Of a DNA stretch of 32,000 bases, positions 6,430 through 22,013 are shown one piece after another. Source of the DNA: Gammaproteobacteria bacterium. GTDB taxonomy: Bacteria > Pseudomonadota > Gammaproteobacteria > HyVt-429. The notes under the pieces are model-generated. The model worked only from the letters and a program-made list of their open reading frames with translations. It ran no database searches and was not told the origin of the DNA. The translations under genes and the position numbers were made by a program. Within the stretch, counting starts at the first letter, position 1. Each line of letters starts with the position of its first letter. The DNA lies in assembly GCA_013152415.1 (NCBI GenBank), contig JAADGI010000014.1:36489-68488 (forward strand), written 5' to 3'.

Positions 6430-7194
6430 TCAAAAATGATAGTTCGGTACTGAATTATGAGGAAATTGTGGGGAGATCAAACCAAGCAAAACAGATTTTG
6501 CAATGGCCTGGCTGCGATTTGTAACATTTAGTTTCTGGATCGAGTTTTTTAAATGAAACACCACTGTCGCTTCAGAAATACTTAGAATTGCCGCAATATC
6601 ATGCGCAGTTTTTCCTTCTGCCACCCATACCAAGCAGGTTTTCTCACGCTCAGTCAGATGGATACTCAATGTACTTTTCTGAGATTGTTGAAATAATTGA
6701 CTGATACGCTCATGTATAAAAGGTTGTAAGGCATTCATGTAAATGATCGCATGGCGTTGCTGCGCAGAATCTTTAGCCATGCTTCTATCTACAGCCAAAC
6801 TGATGAGACCCGTTTTTCCATCAAAATGAGACGTGCCTATACTTATTCCATCACATAATTTGAATTCCTCCGCCTCACCAAAAAATTTACGCACAACTCC
6901 TTCGGTATGTTCATTATAATGCTTCCAGTGATAGGGGGATTGCGAGTTAAAGCAATGTAATGCAACGGGATCGATATTGACATAACCCCGCTCACTGTAA
7001 CGCTCGACCCACTCAGAAGGATAGTCGCCTACAAAAACTGTTGAACTTCGAGTAAAGGTCTCGGGGCATTTGACTACATAGATGATATTTCTAAAATTCA
7101 GATGCTCTCTTATTTTTACTAAAATACATCTAATACCAGATAGATCATTGCTGGTTTTTATTTTTTCGATAATATCAACAAGCCATTGATCCAT
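6430..7194 (-). CDS. LuxR-family transcriptional regulator with an N-terminal autoinducer-binding domain and a C-terminal LuxR/GerE HTH
   Basis: YPSEWVERYSERGYVNIDPV...PYHW keeps the W/Y/D-P/W ligand-pocket pattern of AHL receptors. The C-terminal LTEREKTCLVWVAEGKTAHDIAAILSISEATVVFHLKNSIQKL is a GerE-type HTH. The ATG at 7192-7194 follows AGGTG. The track start at 7203 is a GTG lying inside that RBS. Confidence 0.85.
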   Translation of the reverse strand: MDQWLVDIIEKIKTSNDLSGIRCILVKIREHLNFRNIIYVVKCPETFTRSSTVFVGDYPSEWVERYSERGYVNIDPVALHCFNSQSPYHWKHYNEHTEGVVRKFFGEAEEFKLCDGISIGTSHFDGKTGLISLAVDRSMAKDSAQQRHAIIYMNALQPFIHERISQLFQQSQKSTLSIHLTEREKTCLVWVAEGKTAHDIAAILSISEATVVFHLKNSIQKLNVTNRSQAIAKSVLLGLISPQFPHNSVPNYHF

Positions 7195-7207
7195 TTCATT
7201 CACCTGG

Positions 7208-7435: not shown

Positions 7436-7762
7436 ATGCTTGAGCCTTTGTCAGATTGCGAACTTGGTCCTTGCGTTAAACTATTAGCGGGTGCATGGAC
7501 TTTAGAAATTTTCTTTTATCTAAAGGATAGACCTCTGTATTTTGGGGAACTTAAACGCAGCTTGGGATCTGTCTCGGCCAAGGTGCTTACAGCACGGCTA
7601 CGGGAACTTGAACAACGGGGAGTGGTCGAAAGATCGGTATTAGGTGGCACACCCCCAAACGTAGAATACAAACTTTCTGATATGGGTCAAGAATTAATCC
7701 CGGTTTTGGATTCATTTTCGGAAGTTAGCCGGAGACTGAATAAATACAACAAGACTCAGTAA
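7436..7762 (+). CDS. HxlR-family winged-helix transcriptional regulator
   Basis: 108 aa. CVKLLAGAWTLEIFFYL...FGELKRSL.SVSAKVLTARLRELEQRGVVERSV...PPNVEYKLSDMGQEL is the canonical HxlR pattern. Confidence 0.9.
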   Translation: MLEPLSDCELGPCVKLLAGAWTLEIFFYLKDRPLYFGELKRSLGSVSAKVLTARLRELEQRGVVERSVLGGTPPNVEYKLSDMGQELIPVLDSFSEVSRRLNKYNKTQ

Positions 7763-7957: not shown

Positions 7958-8167
7958 TTAAGTAAGTGCCATTCCAACCTGACCCTATATATTTTCTAAA
8001 AAAAAGACAGTAATTTGTAAGCGCAATATCGCAACCTTACCGTTGACCGTAACGTAAAAATCATAATTTTTCTTTTCCTTCCCGTCCTTGCAAGTGTATC
8101 ATCTTCCCTATCTATTCAATGGTAAAGAGATCAGTTTTTGTCTGTATGCCAATTGGAGGTCCAACCA

Positions 8168-8596
8168 ATGTCCGATATCGATATGGAACTGAGCACAGGT
8201 CTTGCCGCCTTTGAGGCCAAGGAATTTTCCCGTGCCAAACAACTATTGTCACCGCTTGCCGATCAAGGTAACGCCGAGGCCCAGCACCGGCTCGCCATTA
8301 TCTATCAAAATGGACTCAGTCTGGTAAAAAATGAAATGTGCGCCTACAAGTGGATGCGTGCCGCTGCCGAACAGGACCACGCCAACGCCCAGCATGGACT
8401 CGGTTTTATGTATCTGCACGGAGAGTGTATCAACAAGAATGAGACCGAAGCCGCACAGTGGTTTCACAAGGCTGCTGAACAGGGATTGATCGGTTCACAG
8501 ACAATCCTGGCGGAGATGTACGCGACAGGCCAGGGTGTTGAAAAAGACCTAGATGAGGCACAAAAATGGAAAAAGCGGGTAGAGGAACAGACTTAG
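8168..8596 (+). CDS. Sel1-repeat (TPR-like) protein
   Basis: There are three to four Sel1 units (GNAEAQHRLAIIYQNG, DHANAQHGLGFMYLHG, GLIGSQTILAEMYATGQGVEKDLDEAQKW). The ATG at 8168 has GGAGG (8155-8159) 8 nt upstream. The track start at 8138 is a TTG. Confidence 0.8.
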   Translation: MSDIDMELSTGLAAFEAKEFSRAKQLLSPLADQGNAEAQHRLAIIYQNGLSLVKNEMCAYKWMRAAAEQDHANAQHGLGFMYLHGECINKNETEAAQWFHKAAEQGLIGSQTILAEMYATGQGVEKDLDEAQKWKKRVEEQT

Positions 8597-8703: not shown

Positions 8704-11178
8704 CTAGAGCCTTTCTTCGGAAACCAGATGTTCATCCAGGTCCAGGATGACGTTTGTAAAACCATTTTTCTGAGCACCTTGAAGAAACTCGGCACGCCGC
8801 AGGAGCGCCTCTTCTGTACCACCAACGCCAGCCAGACCATTCCCTTGCTCTCGCCCAGGGCGATGGGCTGCCACCAGCGTGTGTGAGCGTTGGTAAATAT
8901 ACTCAGATGCCTTTTGATAGCCGAGTTTACGAACCTTTACATCGTAATAATCTGCTGATGATTCCGTCAGATCAATCACCCATTCCGTTGAGCCCCCATC
9001 AATGATGTCTTGCCGCGCATTGCTGATTAAACCGGGTAATGGCTTATTGTCTTTACCACTTCCTCTCCACACCGTGTTATCGATCCGAGGCTCACCGTTC
9101 CATGCTGCACCTGCCTCGAACACCTTCTTGTAGTCCTCTATCATCCGGGCCTCGGGAACCGCTTCTATAATAAGGAGCCGGTGTGGAACGTTATGCTTCT
9201 GCAAATACTCGACAGCCGTCTTCGTCATCACATAGTCTGATCCGGGGGCAAGCGGCGTAACCAGGGTTAAGTGAACATCGGGATTTCGATCGGCCAATTT
9301 ACGTAGGATATCGGCGATTTGTTCTCGCAGCCAATCTCCTTCCTCCGCATCAATATGGTTCTTTCCAATCAGACCAATCCAGCAATCTTTACGGATTAAG
9401 TCTTGATTTCCACCGTCCTCTACCCTGGTCAGTAGACTTCGGTCCAAAAGGCGAATCTGATTACGGTCAAAATCCCTGGTTTGCTCATCCAAAGATTCAT
9501 AAGGGACAATATTGGGATGAAGTTTACGGGTATCATCCCGGCGCTCACCATATTGCCATCCATCCACATACCTTCCCGCCACCCATGACCGATGCTCAAG
9601 TTCGGCCAGCATCTCTAGCGTATCCGTATCTTCACAAAACCGGAATCCATTCGAGACATCTAAAGCGTATCCGCCTGATACGTAATACCCAGCGGCCGAA
9701 AGCTTGGTTTTAATATGATCTGCGGCCCGACGATTGGAGACACGATAAGTTTCGCTTAGCTCCCGCCATTTAGATAGCGGCAACCCACTCCGCCCTTCGC
9801 CCTCATGACCCAACCGGGTCTGGCGATCTCCCACATAGGCGAGATGGATCTTCAGGGCAATGTCCTCCAAAGACCCCTCTAGTTTTTTCAGCGAGCATAA
9901 CCGATCCTCGACACCAAAAGGCTGGATTATATCGCTGAACCGTCGTGCATGGGACGAAGCAACAAGCAGGTCCCCGATTCCTTCGCATTTGGACAAGCGG
10001 ACATAGGTCGGAGACTTCCAACACCCAGTCTGCTGCATCGTGTTCTGGACGCATATGGCAGCACTCAGCGCTGTAGCACCCTGATCCAGACAAATAAACA
10101 CGGCGGTAACTTCATCGGCTCTCTCGATCTTAGCCATGAGTTCTTTCGACAAACGGTCAGTCTCAAATCGGAAATTTTCGAACCTAATCTCTGCAATCTC
10201 TTTACCTTTGATTTGCGGATAAGCCTGTTCGATCCGCGACTTCGCCATAGCTTCATCATCAGTTAAGATGGTAAAAACGGGGCACTCAAAATCAGGATAT
10301 ACACTAGCGGGTGGCAAGTATCCAATCATCGCCTCGGTATAATCATCGAATCCAATAAAAACTACATGAATACGCTTCTGGTTGCGAAGTTTGGCATAGT
10401 TCCACAGTGGTTCAGCCCAGATGAACTGGCGTACCGCCCAAACGCTGAGGTTGAACGGCAACATATCAAAACTACCACAACTTCGTTTAATGGATTCCGA
10501 ACGCACAAGTTGACGCCACAGTTGCCGATTACTGACGGCGACACTTGCGAGTAACCGTGACCCCACCCTTAGTCGCTCTTCGACAATCTTGCGAGCCATC
10601 ATAGTCACCTCAAGATTCTCGCTATCATCGGGCAGTGCCACGATCAGGCGCCTGGCCTTATGGATTGCTGCTTCTTCCAGAATGGCCCGATCAAGCGGAT
10701 TGCCCACCAAGATTTCAAAACCAAGAAGCCGCGCAACAGTCTCATTCGCCTCATCGTACTTGTTGCCTATCAGTACAACTTTGTGCCCACAATCTACTTC
10801 TGACTTGGCGAATGCAAGGCCATTCTTCGAAAGCCCACAGACAACCGTATGGTCCTTCATCATGCGGATACGCCTGGCCTTGATGGTGCTCGCGAAGAAC
10901 TCGATACCGACCCTGAGAATCGCACCCGCTGTCGCCAGAGGGGCTGTAACACGCGCAATCAAAAGAGAATAATAATCATCAGGAATGGGGATATCCGGTT
11001 TTTCTGCAGAAAAGAACGAGATTGTCCGGGCTACAATTTTTAAGAAAAGGCTGGGGTCAAATTTATTGCCACGGGCCAGCTCATAGACAGCCCAACCGTA
11101 TAAGCCAAGACCCGCGCTTACTGCCGCCCAAAGGAACAATCCGACCCATAAAAACTTATCGGTTCGTTTTATTGACAC
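8704..11178 (-). CDS. membrane protein: N-terminal 2 TM, TrkA_N-like Rossmann region(s), RyR domain, C-terminal SLOG-like (YpsA/DprA/LOG-type) Rossmann domain. Candidate effector/sensor partner of the adjacent TIR protein
   Basis: 824 aa with a GTG start preceded by GGTGA. TM helices at aa 9-31 and 71-95. TrkA_N-like: HTVVCGLSKNGLAFAK...KVVLIG...GNPLDRAILEEAAIHKARRLIVALPDD (aa ~110-225). RyR: LEMLAELEHRSWVAGRYVDGWQYGERRDDTRKLHPNIVPYESLDEQTRDFDRN (aa ~520-575), preceded by IALKIHLAY...WRELSETYRVSNRRAADHIKTKL. SLOG-like (aa ~597-815): WIGLIGKNH, VTPLAPGSD and SHTLVAAH...GVGGTEEAL. No K+ selectivity filter (TVGYG) is present. Confidence 0.75.
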   Translation of the reverse strand: MSIKRTDKFLWVGLFLWAAVSAGLGLYGWAVYELARGNKFDPSLFLKIVARTISFFSAEKPDIPIPDDYYSLLIARVTAPLATAGAILRVGIEFFASTIKARRIRMMKDHTVVCGLSKNGLAFAKSEVDCGHKVVLIGNKYDEANETVARLLGFEILVGNPLDRAILEEAAIHKARRLIVALPDDSENLEVTMMARKIVEERLRVGSRLLASVAVSNRQLWRQLVRSESIKRSCGSFDMLPFNLSVWAVRQFIWAEPLWNYAKLRNQKRIHVVFIGFDDYTEAMIGYLPPASVYPDFECPVFTILTDDEAMAKSRIEQAYPQIKGKEIAEIRFENFRFETDRLSKELMAKIERADEVTAVFICLDQGATALSAAICVQNTMQQTGCWKSPTYVRLSKCEGIGDLLVASSHARRFSDIIQPFGVEDRLCSLKKLEGSLEDIALKIHLAYVGDRQTRLGHEGEGRSGLPLSKWRELSETYRVSNRRAADHIKTKLSAAGYYVSGGYALDVSNGFRFCEDTDTLEMLAELEHRSWVAGRYVDGWQYGERRDDTRKLHPNIVPYESLDEQTRDFDRNQIRLLDRSLLTRVEDGGNQDLIRKDCWIGLIGKNHIDAEEGDWLREQIADILRKLADRNPDVHLTLVTPLAPGSDYVMTKTAVEYLQKHNVPHRLLIIEAVPEARMIEDYKKVFEAGAAWNGEPRIDNTVWRGSGKDNKPLPGLISNARQDIIDGGSTEWVIDLTESSADYYDVKVRKLGYQKASEYIYQRSHTLVAAHRPGREQGNGLAGVGGTEEALLRRAEFLQGAQKNGFTNVILDLDEHLVSEERL

Positions 11179-11374
11179 AGGTTTATATCACCAAAGTTTA
11201 ATGACTTAGCAAATCTTCCATTAACCACCGATACGATCTCCATTTCAACGCTTGGATGATTTTATTTACCTTTCCTTCCCGGTTTTGTCACGATAAATAA
11301 CCGCTATTCAGATTCCCGCCTTCACCACCTTAGCCAAGCCACCGTAGAAGGATTTGATTTTCAAATGCCTCTGT

Positions 11375-12247
11375 TCAGTGTTTATTTAATATTTTATCGA
11401 GGATAGACTGAAAAACTGTTTGTGCAAAAATCTTATCACTATCACTAATTTCGTTATTTTTATGCTTCGAATGACCCGAGATATTGCGCTCAGCGATTCG
11501 CAGTGAGCGCAACAACTCTTCTGAAATCAATCCATCTGCGATCAAATCGTACTCCCTCTGGAAGGACTTAATCGCAAACCTGGTATTCGTGTCGCTTGCA
11601 CCTGTAATCCTGCCATTATAGTAACCCAATCGCTGTAGAGCCCTCTGCACTTCGTAGGCATGCACGGCCTTTTCCCTGAAATTTCCATCACCACCGGAAA
11701 ATAGAAGTTGCCATGCGACCAACAAACCAAGTATACCGATTGTGGACATGACCACCCCTACAGCAATTCCATGTCTATGGAAAAATTTTACCTTCTTTTT
11801 CTTTAGCAGATTTCGAGACTGCCGGGAATGCACTTCTTGCTGCCCATTTACAACAGGTATGAGTCTGTTAATGTGCGGACCAAGCGGTCCATCGAAAGCA
11901 TCAATCCAGTGATGTGCGCCAATAAAAAACTCAAGCGAGCTGGATGGAAGAATATCCTTTATGCGGAAAGGGAAAATTGGAACGAGTTTTGAGGCTGCGC
12001 GCTCTACCTCGCGTCTTACCATAGGTGATGCATTGGCATCCTCCGTGAGAACCAGCACCATGCACTTCGAGCTATTGATGCCGCGGATAATTTCCTCGCC
12101 GTACTCCCTGCCAGGGCGAACATCTCGCGGCGCGATCCAACACCGACAACCCTTCTTTTCCAAATGCAGGGCTATTTCATATGCCCGATCCTGATCTTGA
12201 GAGGCATAACTGATAAAAGCGAAGTACTCCGTTTCCTGCTCAACCAT
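11375..12247 (-). CDS. TIR-domain protein with one TM helix and a C-terminal peptidoglycan-binding (PG_binding_1) domain
   Basis: 290 aa, with AAGGAGG 8 nt upstream of the ATG. TIR: YFAFISYASQDQDRAYEIALHLEKKGCRCWIAPRD...CMVLVLTEDANASPMVRREVERA (candidate catalytic Glu at E80). KKKKVKFFHRH is followed by the TM helix GIAVGVVMSTIGILGLLVAWQLLF (aa 160-183). PG-binding: VQRALQRLGYYNGRITGASDTNTRFAIKSFQREYDLIADGLISEELLRSL. Confidence 0.85.
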   Translation of the reverse strand: MVEQETEYFAFISYASQDQDRAYEIALHLEKKGCRCWIAPRDVRPGREYGEEIIRGINSSKCMVLVLTEDANASPMVRREVERAASKLVPIFPFRIKDILPSSSLEFFIGAHHWIDAFDGPLGPHINRLIPVVNGQQEVHSRQSRNLLKKKKVKFFHRHGIAVGVVMSTIGILGLLVAWQLLFSGGDGNFREKAVHAYEVQRALQRLGYYNGRITGASDTNTRFAIKSFQREYDLIADGLISEELLRSLRIAERNISGHSKHKNNEISDSDKIFAQTVFQSILDKILNKH

Positions 12248-12630
12248 CGAGACATCCTCCTTAAGCCGTATCCATGTTTTTCCTGGTAGCTACAAATTTC
12301 GGCTCTAGCAGTCAAAACAGCAAAAGACAAACCAAGCTAAGCTTCACGGGCGAAGAAACTAACTTTGTGGGCACGTGACTAATCCAGCACGGTTCCTCAG
12401 GATTGTGCGGGCTTTGCCCAAATCCGGGGCACTACCCATTCTTCTTGCAATTATACTACTGAAAGTAGACTGCATTGGCAAACCACCCCTCTCGATATTC
12501 TTAGGCATGCCCCAAGCCTTTGATCACATCTCGGAGATAGACCAGACCCCCTAATAAAGCAGCCACATCGCAGCAATTCACTGGTTTTGGGGGGATTATC
12601 AGTACACTGAATATTTCTAATATACGAAAA

Positions 12631-20538: not shown

Positions 20539-21963
20539 CTATTTCCTGGTTGTAGTGCTGATTGTAGAGGGGATCGTATGGCCTTTTAATTGCGGCATAT
20601 CTGGCTCCATCGGGTAGACTTTAGTAGCAGAAGGTACCGACCTGACAGGCCGGGCAGGCCGGGCACCATCGGGTGATTGATTCCTTTTCATTACACTAAT
20701 AGAGCCACCCTCAGCATCCTTGCCTTGCACGATGATTACCTCCACGCGACGATTTATAGCGCGACCAGAGGCGGTACGATTACTGTCCAAGGGCCGAGTA
20801 TCGGCATAGCCCTCTATGCGAAAGCGGCTGGGCTTGATGCTACTTACCGCCATCAACTCGTGGGCCACGGTTGCGGCCCGGGCCGCAGATAGATCCCAGT
20901 TGGACCTGAACCGTGCAGTGCGTATAGGCACACTGTCAGTGTGACCGGCGACGATAAATTCACCCTTGGAGGCCTCCAGTATATCACTCATCTTCATCAG
21001 GATCGGGTAGAAGGGCTCGATAAGGTCGGCATTGCCCGAAGGGAACGATCCCTTCTCGCGTATACGAATAATAATCCTACTGCCTTCAGCCACCACCTGA
21101 ATCAAACCTTGTTGGATCTCTTTCTTTAGGGATTTTTCTATGGCCTTGAGTTCTTTAGTGAGTGCCTCATCCTTCTCCTTGCCTTGAACGCCACCCACAT
21201 CATCTTTGGCCAAGATACCGAGATCCTTCTCTGCCGTACTTTTGGCCAGCTGGATATCCTTATCCATACCTGCTTCAGTCTGTTCAGGCATGCCCTTTAT
21301 TTTGGACGCCATATCCTCGGCCGCCTGAGCATCCTGGGCTTTGGCCATTTCCTGTCCCTTGAGGGTAGTCCCACTTTGCTGGGTATCGCCCTTGCTGTCT
21401 GTGACCGGGCTGGTAAATTCCTTGTCACTGTCCCCCAACCCGGTCAATCCCAACTTTTTTGCGCCTTCATGCTGGCCATGGGTATCCGGGGTTTCCTTAC
21501 CGGATTTTACCCCGACGATATTCTTTGCCTCTTGCTTACCCGGAGTCCCTTTGTCATCCTTCAGGCCCTTTTTGCTCAACACCATCTCTGGCTGAGGTGC
21601 CTGTGGCGATGACACTTCAATCTTGTCAGTTCTTTCATCCGGGACTTCCAGATTCCGCTTCATGTCCTGGGTGGTAAACTGGCGTACTTCATTACGGATG
21701 GTCATCACCGGCCGACCGGGACTGAACTCACGGGCAATAATATTGATACCCTTGGGGGTTTGCTTAACGTTCACATCCCGTTGCACACCGTAGGCCTCCT
21801 TCATGGAGCCTGCGAGTTGTTTAAATTTGAGCGCATCCATTTCAGAAAAAGACAGGAGCAATACAAAGAAGCTCATCAGCAAGGTCATCAGATCGGCAAA
21901 GGTCATCACCCATGCCGGTGAACCCTCGTCTACTTGCTCTTGATTGGCGATTGCCTCTTCCAT
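20539..21963 (-). CDS. motB: flagellar stator protein MotB/PomB family (OmpA-like C-terminal domain) with a long low-complexity linker
   Basis: PAWVMTFADLMTLLMSFFVLLLSFSEMD is the PomB/MotB plug-TM segment with the conserved Asp. The C-terminal IVAGHTDS.P......SNWDLSAARA..V is OmpA/MotB-type PG binding. I took the ATG at 21963 as the start. A GTG at 21981 is an alternative. Confidence 0.85.
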   Translation of the reverse strand: MEEAIANQEQVDEGSPAWVMTFADLMTLLMSFFVLLLSFSEMDALKFKQLAGSMKEAYGVQRDVNVKQTPKGINIIAREFSPGRPVMTIRNEVRQFTTQDMKRNLEVPDERTDKIEVSSPQAPQPEMVLSKKGLKDDKGTPGKQEAKNIVGVKSGKETPDTHGQHEGAKKLGLTGLGDSDKEFTSPVTDSKGDTQQSGTTLKGQEMAKAQDAQAAEDMASKIKGMPEQTEAGMDKDIQLAKSTAEKDLGILAKDDVGGVQGKEKDEALTKELKAIEKSLKKEIQQGLIQVVAEGSRIIIRIREKGSFPSGNADLIEPFYPILMKMSDILEASKGEFIVAGHTDSVPIRTARFRSNWDLSAARAATVAHELMAVSSIKPSRFRIEGYADTRPLDSNRTASGRAINRRVEVIIVQGKDAEGGSISVMKRNQSPDGARPARPVRSVPSATKVYPMEPDMPQLKGHTIPSTISTTTRK

Positions 21964-22013
21964 ATTTACCCAACCGGACACACAGCGGCCACTCGACTAA
22001 ACTCCCGCTGTGA

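Follow-up and report, generated by a model that had tools for sequence, protein, structure and literature searches.

A transmembrane TIR protein paired with an RCK-RyR-SLOG-like membrane protein in a gammaproteobacterial genome: a candidate Thoeris-like signalling module

The described systems closest to the gene pair analyzed here are those of the Thoeris group. The pair is located on the minus strand of a 32,000-nucleotide (nt) stretch of contig JAADGI010000014.1 of a Gammaproteobacteria bacterium (hereafter, the window; all coordinates are those of this stretch) and encodes a TIR protein of 290 amino acids (aa) and a membrane protein of 824 aa with RCK, RyR and SLOG-like domains. According to the text and tables of a Thoeris survey (Yirmiya et al. 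2025, 10.64898/2025.12.03.692087), there are 29 putative types, of which types I–XI are named, and the effectors include ‘Ion channel (X)’ as well as two predicted ones, ‘SLOG and 4TM’ and ‘SLOG Patatin’. The same parts of the survey assign SLOG sensors to types I, III and IX and to these two predicted effectors, and membrane effectors to types II, V, VI and VII; in type VII, SLATT, a protein with two transmembrane (TM) helices, is the validated effector responding to the TIR signal. No RyR, TrkA or 2TM-RCK-RCK-RyR-SLOG effector is present in this text and these tables, including Table S2 (Fig. 1C lay outside the comparison), and, as far as these parts of the survey go, the chance of a prior listing among the Thoeris types is small. 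A preliminary description of this DNA, made from the sequence alone, had presented the pair as unassigned to any named system, and neither PADLOC nor the published Thoeris types in the compared parts provided an assignment.

The RyR domain has a characterized relative in RyDEP, a phage RyR-domain glycosidase that binds 2′/3′-cyclic ADP-ribose (2′/3′cADPR) and was reported in a May 2026 preprint whose scope is viral proteins only (PMC13232231). RyDEP is an inverting glycosidase in which H75 acts as the base, W78 stacks with the adenine, H100 is assigned to the phosphates and D117 acts as the acid. Most of the tested phage homologues in which these residues are present bind the signals but leave them intact, and catalytic and non-catalytic homologues are not distinguishable by sequence (PMC13232231).

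We read the window pair as a two-gene Thoeris-like TIR signalling module, in which a TIR receptor is combined with an RCK-RyR-SLOG receiver/effector, and put the probability of this reading at roughly 55%. The two open reading frames (ORFs) are on the same strand with the TIR gene upstream and a gap of 196 nt between them, at exactly the coordinates given in the preliminary description. The pair consists of the following features.

11375–12247, minus strand: gene 1, TIR-TM-PG_binding_1 receptor-like protein, 290 aa (ORF, Pfam, identical NCBI protein)
11843–12226, minus strand: cytoplasmic TIR domain, aa 8–135, with the Glu E80 at the catalytic position (Pfam, Glu column)
11699–11773, minus strand: single TM helix, approximately aa 159–183, N-terminus in and C-terminus out (hydropathy 2.06 at aa 159–177)
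11501–11653, minus strand: periplasmic peptidoglycan (PG)-binding domain, aa 199–249 (Pfam PG_binding_1)
11179–11374, minus strand: intergenic spacer, 196 nt (promoter/terminator scan)
8704–11178, minus strand: gene 2, 2TM-RCK-RCK-RyR-SLOG-like membrane protein, 824 aa (ORF, AlphaFold2 model)
10864–11178, minus strand: membrane module, aa 1–105, with TM1, a short pore-helix-like helix and TM2, without TVGYG (AlphaFold2, Foldseek)
10474–10857, minus strand: RCK1/TrkA_N Rossmann domain, aa 108–235 (Pfam TrkA_N; GsuK, TrkA and MthK structures)
9883–10386, minus strand: second RCK-like Rossmann domain, aa 265–432 (beta-alpha-beta pattern of the AlphaFold2 model; GsuK alignment)
9430–9873, minus strand: RyR Repeat12-like domain, aa 436–583, with H529, W532, H554 and D571 (Pfam, PDB, RyDEP BLASTP)
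8707–9393, minus strand: C-terminal SLOG-like Rossmannoid domain, aa 596–824 (AlphaFold2 mean local confidence, pLDDT, 93.4; BFVD matches)

Identical proteins for both genes were found in a Gammaproteobacteria metagenome-assembled genome (MAG), namely, GXP09_04330 for the 824-aa protein and an NCBI entry named ‘TIR domain-containing protein’ for the TIR protein. The 824-aa ORF starts with GTG, which is considered correct since its N-terminus is in register with those of the homologues. The promoter/terminator scan found no terminator-like site in the 196-nt spacer, so the co-transcription of the two genes is probable, as far as the sequence can indicate.

In the 290-aa protein, Pfam analysis detected the TIR_2 domain at aa 11–120 (E 4.5e-22) and the PG_binding_1 domain at aa 199–249 (3.7e-12). 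The latter region additionally matched PG_binding_2 (4.1e-5) and, partially, the SleB/HxsA model of NCBIfam. Seven Lys/Arg residues precede and two follow the only hydrophobic segment (aa 159–177); therefore, the TIR domain was placed in the cytoplasm and the PG-binding domain in the periplasm. Both the TIR domain and the membrane anchoring of this protein had been proposed earlier and were supported. E80 lies in the catalytic Glu column, and this Glu is kept in all of the eight aligned TIR partners (eight proteins from seven loci; L005, L009 and L014 were left out of the alignment). TM segments were found in seven of the eight, mostly right behind the TIR domain, while in L002 they are located in the C-terminal CHASE2 region. 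The C-terminal parts of the aligned partners contain PG-binding, TPR or CHASE2 regions or no recognized region, and the eighth partner is a TIR-NB-ARC-TPR protein.

The subfamily to which the window TIR belongs comprises 359 proteins at E ≤ 1e-10. Its C-terminal fusions include TPR, PG_binding_1, LCCL, SH3_3, Sel1, FGE-sulfatase, F5/8 type C, thioredoxin, cyclophilin, FHA and zinc ribbon domains (P0280–P0398). The subfamily members that were checked have at least one TM segment C-terminal to the TIR domain, usually immediately behind it, and the varied C-terminal domains are presumably extracytoplasmic. This layout (TIR, TM segment, variable domain) is a Toll-like-receptor-style arrangement in bacteria.

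The structure of the 824-aa protein was modeled with AlphaFold2 using an alignment of 11 family members (pLDDT 83.8; predicted TM-score, pTM, 0.80). The model contains the two TM helices described previously (TM1, aa 5–35; TM2, aa 70–105) and a short pore-helix-like helix between them (aa 42–56). Pfam analysis detected TrkA_N at aa 112–201 (3e-13) and RyR at aa 519–576 (1.3e-14). According to the Foldseek search of the PDB, the best match of the model is GsuK (E 2e-9, approximately 500 columns, with entries containing bound NAD and ADP), followed by the TrkA ring, full-length MthK (1e-6) and Slo1; RyR Repeat12 structures were matched as well. Since GsuK ranks first and MthK, TrkA and Slo1 come next, aa 1–430 are, in the predicted structure, a GsuK-type unit of two TM helices and tandem RCK domains. 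The pore loop is RTISFFSAEKPD and contains no T(V/I)GYG selectivity filter, so the modeled protein is channel-like in fold and is not a classical K+ channel. The membrane effector of the earlier two-gene proposal is thus retained, and the GsuK-like channel/RCK architecture, missing from that proposal, is added to it.

The RyR domain appears to be the better-supported ligand site and the likely sensor of the 824-aa protein. Its Pfam match (PF02026) has a score of 54.7 bits against a gathering cut-off of 27.4. Comparison of the region with the PDB gave the R12 repeats of RyR1–3 (1e-27 to 1e-17) and also a Bacteroides RyR domain (overall range 1e-27 to 5e-13). In addition, aa 435–590 were compared with the RyDEP protein of phage DyoEdafos (gp78, MN234187.1). 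BLASTP aligned RyDEP with aa 526–589 without gaps (64 residues, 34% identity, E 9e-9), and the alignment score was about 10 standard deviations above that of shuffled sequences. The four functional residues of RyDEP are paired with those of the window protein at identical spacing: H75 with H529, W78 with W532, H100 with H554 and D117 with D571. Among 81 family representatives (clusters at 50% identity), W532 is kept in all, H529 in 79, D571 in 77 and H554 in 70. Because all four RyDEP ligand residues are present and conserved, the RyR domain was preferred over the SLOG domain as the sensor. The preliminary description had assigned sensing to the SLOG domain and had used RyR as a mere label; the sensor is now proposed to lie primarily in the RyR domain. 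Since this domain is part of a host membrane protein that is genetically linked to TIR, it would serve the defence and not the virus, either in signal reception or in regulation.

A 124-aa protein consisting of the RyR domain only is encoded at L004:5469-5843 (minus strand), in a locus without TIR and patatin genes; its gene is divergent from that of the adjoining full-length family member, and it may represent a sponge or regulator of the RyDEP kind, encoded by the host. In phage DyoEdafos, gp89 (L029:10387-10803), a short DprA-like protein of SLOG type, is encoded approximately 5 kb downstream of the RyDEP gene. RyR and SLOG-type domains are thus encoded by separate genes in this phage and fused in the 824-aa protein.

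As for the C-terminal domain, it is predicted to have a SLOG-type fold, with family membership at the sequence level unproven. The AlphaFold2 model of the domain alone, built from the 40-sequence alignment A3 (pLDDT 93.4, pTM 0.91), contains five beta-alpha units and a hairpin. The conserved motifs IGLIGxN, LAPGxD and (P)GGTxE fit a SLOG-type Rossmannoid core, in which Gly-rich loops follow strands 1 and 2 and a GGT/E-type motif comes late. The previously quoted segments WIGLIGKNH, VTPLAPGSD and GVGGTEEAL are present and coincide with the columns of highest conservation in the family. In alignment A1 (11 members), these columns include G602 and G605; in alignment A3, P645 and G646 of the LAPGxD motif are invariant and D648 is conserved in at least 90% of the sequences.

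According to the Foldseek analysis against BFVD, whose targets are predicted and not solved viral structures, the domain has six matches at E ≤ 1e-3. One of them is unnamed (5.1e-7), and a DprA-like phage protein was matched at 1.4e-6 with a target-normalized TM-score of 0.80; the top matches span E-values of 5e-7 to 1e-6 and TM-scores of 0.78–0.80. Further matches with a probability of at least 0.97 include six ‘YspA cpYpsA-related SLOG’ proteins and D29 gp61, and the named high-probability matches are nearly all YspA cpYpsA-related SLOG proteins, D29 gp61 or ‘Rossmann-fold nucleotide-binding protein’. In the PDB, Foldseek found no match to the domain model at E ≤ 1e-3. The weak fold matches were TRPM4 (3e-3, TM-score 0.31; ranks 1, 5 and 9), DprA (2e-2) and the Moco-carrier protein (2e-2). 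TRPM8 is also among the top 30, in which SLOG members are enriched but mixed with TIM barrels and periplasmic binding proteins; TRPM4, DprA, the Moco-carrier protein and TRPM8 are taken by us to be members of the SLOG superfamily.

At the sequence level, a Pfam search with aa 597–824 of the window protein yielded no family and nothing at E ≤ 1, and sub-threshold matches were noted in three relatives only (DprA 0.032, YAcAr 0.059, YpsA 0.057). With NCBIfam and PADLOC, too, neither of the two proteins was assigned to a SLOG family or a defence system. Sequence-profile searches of the PDB gave no match with alignment A2 and nothing relevant with A3; the match of the A3 profile to the HD-domain protein YfbR (E 0.004) was judged spurious. 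The hhalign comparison of the domain profile with E. coli Smf/DprA was not significant (probability 2%). It covered 30 columns on the signature motif (VTLVTPLAPGSD ~ VTITSGLARGID) with a score of 21.5 against 17.0 and 12.0 for the controls, the protein's own RCK Rossmann domains; the DprA profile was shallow, its homologues being all enterobacterial and at least 68% identical. No match to the LOG protein PpnN was found by hhalign. Of the earlier SLOG assignment, the fold is therefore upheld (BFVD, TM-score 0.8), and the sequence and profile comparisons (Pfam, PDB profiles, hhalign) did not bear it out; read strictly, the SLOG/Rossmann similarity on which that assignment had been staked is half absent.

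No Pfam model exists for the C-terminal domain family. An exhaustive profile search found the domain in 240 cluster representatives, and among the 150 of these that were listed, 105 near-full-length copies were classified: 70 are C-terminal on RCK-RyR proteins, 17 are standalone (approximately 200 aa) and 18 are N-terminal on proteins with TPR-S and nucleotide-cyclase domains. The latter proteins (approximately 800–850 aa, e.g., P0093, P0100, P0105, P0116 and P0120) combine TPR-S (PF20308) with a C-terminal adenylate/guanylate cyclase domain.

The gene neighbourhood was analyzed in a non-redundant set of 17 loci, each encoding a full-length member of the family of the 824-aa protein; the neighbours were annotated with Pfam, all-against-all BLAST and six-frame tblastn. 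In 10 of the 17, a TIR gene is adjacent (the window, L002, L005, L006, L009, L012, L014, L016, L017 with two copies, and L021), and beyond these loci it adjoins four partial or shorter relatives (L020, L023, L027, L028), which agrees with the earlier suggestion of a conserved pair of TIR and membrane protein genes. Patatin is adjacent in nine loci (L001, L002, L003, L005, L008, L009, L011, L012, L021), and both TIR and patatin in five. In addition, caspase-WD40 genes are neighbours in 2/17 loci, nSTAND1-TPR nucleoside triphosphatase (NTPase) genes in 3/17, and nSTAND1 or NB-ARC genes in 4/17. In the GC-rich loci L008, L011 and L014, long antisense ORFs overlap the true patatin or TIR genes, which were recovered by six-frame tblastn. 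The two-gene composition proposed earlier applies to the window; elsewhere the system often has three genes, including patatin, and sometimes has nSTAND1 or caspase genes nearby.

Pattern scans detected 7 loci in genomes and 13 in metagenomes. The distribution is patchy and rare, in Alpha- and Gammaproteobacterial MAGs, and transposases adjoin some of the loci. A scan of viral contigs revealed no relatives of the family on such contigs (alignment A3 was too divergent for use in a pattern scan); the system is therefore considered to be host-side.

Several other genes stand beside family members. In L021:599-6327, these encode a TIR-NB-ARC/AAA_16-TPR protein (992 aa), an FtsH-like protein with AAA and M41 peptidase domains (911 aa) and patatin. 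Proteins with M48 peptidase, SH3 and SHOCT domains recur in L002 and L003. The DUF4062 domain (PF13271) is N-terminal on an nSTAND1-TPR protein at L003:9739-13578 (weak, E 0.003) and on a TPR protein at L006:6195-8021 (1e-14); DUF4062 is presumably a TIR-like domain.

Like Thoeris, the window pair combines a TIR with a catalytic Glu and an adjoining gene for a domain, here putative, of the nucleotide-signal-binding type fused to a membrane or toxic module, and in both cases one TIR family is paired with alternative effectors. However, ThsB is soluble, whereas the window TIR is itself receptor-like, anchored in the membrane and equipped with a PG-binding domain on the periplasmic side; in addition, patatin is often a separate third gene here and the window pair is located outside a defence island. 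The ThsB models of PADLOC match the window TIR weakly (E 0.005). The TIR of type X Thoeris is short and ThsB-like, in contrast to the TIR_2-TM-PGB protein of the window. The type X effector (ThsK, the ‘ion channel’) was sought through plasmid homologues of the type X TIR, and the five loci obtained were all of type II (TIR and Macro).

An operon related to type VII Thoeris was found at L037:1041-6311. It encodes a SLATT_1 protein (500 aa), patatin and two TIR_2 proteins, the second of which is 55% identical to the window TIR, and it resembles a type VII Thoeris-like system, with patatin as an extra gene. What this operon has in common with the family loci is the TIR subfamily, the association with patatin and, at the position of the RCK-RyR-SLOG protein, a membrane protein with two TM helices; the SLATT sequence is unrelated to the RCK-RyR-SLOG protein. 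The occupation of that position by SLATT_1 next to a close TIR homologue supports the reading of the pair as a signalling module.

RyDEP and the window RyR domain share PF02026, the 34% identity over 64 residues and the four ligand and catalytic residues at identical spacing, but RyDEP is a soluble protein of 138 aa with which a virus counters defence, as an enzyme or a sponge, whereas here the domain is inside a host 824-aa membrane protein linked to TIR. GsuK and MthK share the 2-TM pore-type module followed by (tandem) RCK domains, and GsuK binds NAD+ and ADP; in contrast to them, the 824-aa protein has no TVGYG filter and has approximately 400 additional C-terminal residues (RyR and SLOG). 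The R12 and SLOG/MHR1-2 modules of ryanodine receptors and TRPM2/4 occur here together on one channel-like protein. The 6-TM pore of those channels differs from the unrelated 2-TM RCK type of the present protein, and the TRPM match is weak (E and TM-score as given above). The SLOG domain of TRPM2 binds ADP-ribose (ADPR). Taken together, the effector class looks new among TIR-signalling systems, and the pair otherwise looks Thoeris-like. The 2TM-RCK-RCK-RyR-SLOG architecture was not mentioned in the Aravind-group papers searched for it.

The domains, conserved residues, matched folds and linked genes observed here allow the following course of events, with a presumed anti-phage role, to be proposed. 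The periplasmic PG-binding domain of the TIR protein would report an envelope or peptidoglycan event, upon which the cytoplasmic TIR domain (E80) would convert NAD+ into an ADP-ribose-derived signal, probably of the 2′/3′cADPR type. The 824-aa protein may then bind the signal in its RyR pocket, its SLOG domain or both, which would move the RCK assembly, so that the non-K+-selective membrane module would be opened or disturbed, leading to ion leak and growth arrest. In the related three-gene loci, the patatin phospholipase may be an additional or downstream effector.

If this is correct, a new class of effectors would be added to TIR immune signalling, together with a new kind of input: a TIR receptor that spans the membrane and has its sensor domain outside the cytoplasm. 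Bacterial RyR domains, for which functional data have hitherto come from phage RyDEP destroying or sequestering 2′/3′cADPR, would have a host-side role, and a host receptor with a RyDEP-type pocket would be the missing counterpart, from which the phage gene was probably derived. One simple bacterial channel-like protein would carry both an RyR repeat and a SLOG domain, the modules tied to the control of animal RyR and TRPM2 by cyclic ADP-ribose (cADPR) and ADPR, and the long-disputed binding of cADPR-type ligands by RyR repeats would become testable in a tractable system. A more specific version, which is tentative and seems rather unlikely in its entirety, is that of a bacterial channel gated by a cADPR-type ligand, with RyR R12 and TRPM-like SLOG domains on a GsuK-like pore and a transmembrane TIR monitoring peptidoglycan as its source of signal; RyDEP would then have originated on the host side, and there would be a bacterial precedent for the animal (c)ADPR-RyR and ADPR-TRPM2 pairs.

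Several results weigh against the signalling-module reading. Starting from the TIR side, four close homologues encoded on long contigs were examined and none had an RCK-RyR-SLOG partner, and the TIR subfamily occurs mostly without this partner. TIR is absent from the visible DNA in 7 of the 17 loci, some of which have patatin, nSTAND1 or caspase-WD40 only, and two loci (L004 and L013) have none of TIR, patatin, caspase-WD40 or nSTAND1. The family is rare, with 15 matches in a word search and approximately 80–100 full-length representatives. PADLOC v2 has no model for the 824-aa effector (0 matches) and gave generic TIR matches only for its partner. Similarity to RyDEP is detectable in the second half of RyDEP only and undetectable in its first half; moreover, a gapped alignment would pair D117 with D569 and not with the invariant D571, and the conserved catalytic dyad suits hydrolysis equally with sensing. 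The T(V/I)GYG filter is absent at the pore-loop position in the window protein and in all 81 relatives, so that channel activity is no more than putative. Finally, the defence-island check suggested earlier was negative, as the pair is located between clpSA and ordinary regulators, with housekeeping genes nearby, no defence genes around it and no PADLOC detection in the vicinity.

Among the other explanations, the one that survives best, though we regard it as unlikely, is that the RCK-RyR-SLOG protein is a constant sensor or regulator (e.g., of membrane state or a nucleotide), with TIR, patatin and caspase as alternative terminal effectors that are switched on by the 824-aa protein or by nSTAND1/NB-ARC NTPases; the TIR would then deplete NAD+ and produce no signal. 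This possibility stays alive because patatin is often the third gene and nSTAND1 or caspase genes are sometimes nearby. The neighbour classes are indeed varied (TIR, patatin, caspase-WD40, trypsin-caspase, nSTAND1-TPR, TIR-NB-ARC-TPR, M48 and FtsH-like peptidases) and represent the vocabulary of the NTPase conflict systems of Kaur, Burroughs and Aravind; TPR or STAND modules are joined to several of the TIRs, an arrangement shared with Avs-like proteins, in which the TIR is an effector. On the other hand, TIR and patatin occur together in five loci and so do not simply replace each other, neither an NTPase nor a further effector is present in the window version, and the pocket of the constant protein binds TIR products in its only characterized prokaryotic-virus relative. 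RyR or TrkA components are not mentioned in Kaur et al. 2020 and 2021 (eLife). The EACC1 system of Kaur et al. 2020 was also considered, as nSTAND1 co-occurs. It was discarded, since EACC1 is a small domain with one TM helix and these papers are silent on RyR and TrkA. The window locus has neither EACC1 nor a core NTPase (MoxR-vWA, STAND).

A second possibility, which seems quite improbable, is that the RyR domain is a RyDEP-like glycosidase hydrolyzing 2′/3′cADPR from the neighbouring or other TIRs, as an off-switch or a buffer against autoimmunity. The equivalents of the catalytic dyad, H529 and D571, are almost invariant, and RyDEP uses exactly these residues (PMC13232231). However, the two TM helices, the two RCK domains and the SLOG domain are all conserved and would be superfluous for a buffer, the two-gene window locus would be left without an effector, and most of the tested RyDEP homologues with the same residues bind only (PMC13232231). 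This conservation of the whole architecture, together with the co-occurrence of TIR and patatin and the lack of another effector in the window, disfavours both the constant-sensor and the signal-hydrolysis explanations relative to a signalling module with its own receiver. Similarly improbable is a nucleotide-regulated RCK ion or osmolyte channel with a cell-wall-sensing TIR for envelope-stress or NAD-status signalling without a role in conflict: the neighbours clpSA, cspD, icd, LuxR and HxlR without defence genes, the unremarkable GC content of the pair, close to that of the flanks, the regulation of the K+ channel GsuK by NAD/ADP and the suitability of a PG-binding domain for envelope sensing would fit it, but the patchy and rare distribution over MAGs, the transposases beside some loci, the absence of the K+ filter and the repeated occurrence next to patatin, caspase and STAND genes, which are typical of conflict systems, argue against it.

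In the remainder of the window, PADLOC ZorB (MotB-like) models matched a 480-aa protein (20539–21981, minus strand) at 1e-18. The match covers the OmpA/MotB-type region at its C-terminus and probably reflects generic OmpA_C/MotB similarity rather than a Zorya system, no search for ZorA having been made. The following features surround the pair.

12453–12481, minus strand: weak promoter-like site 5′ of the TIR gene, consensus match only (9/12 matches)
8138–8596, plus strand: small Sel1-repeat protein, convergent with the 824-aa gene, downstream of the pair
7436–7762, plus strand: HxlR regulator, downstream of the pair
6430–7203, minus strand: LuxR-type regulator with an autoinducer-binding domain, downstream of the pair

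The number of promoter-like sites in the region is no higher than in shuffled sequences. The pair had been described as lying downstream of a clpA terminator. The identity of the upstream genes as clpS-clpA was confirmed, and in place of a clear terminator the spacer between clpA and the TIR gene contains a single weak terminator-like hairpin (12574–12562, minus strand), no more than are found in shuffles. No LuxI-like ORF was noticed adjoining the LuxR-type regulator gene. The housekeeping surroundings also include cspD and icd, and the genes downstream of the pair encode, besides the Sel1-repeat protein and the HxlR and LuxR-type regulators, a pirin and an isochorismatase.

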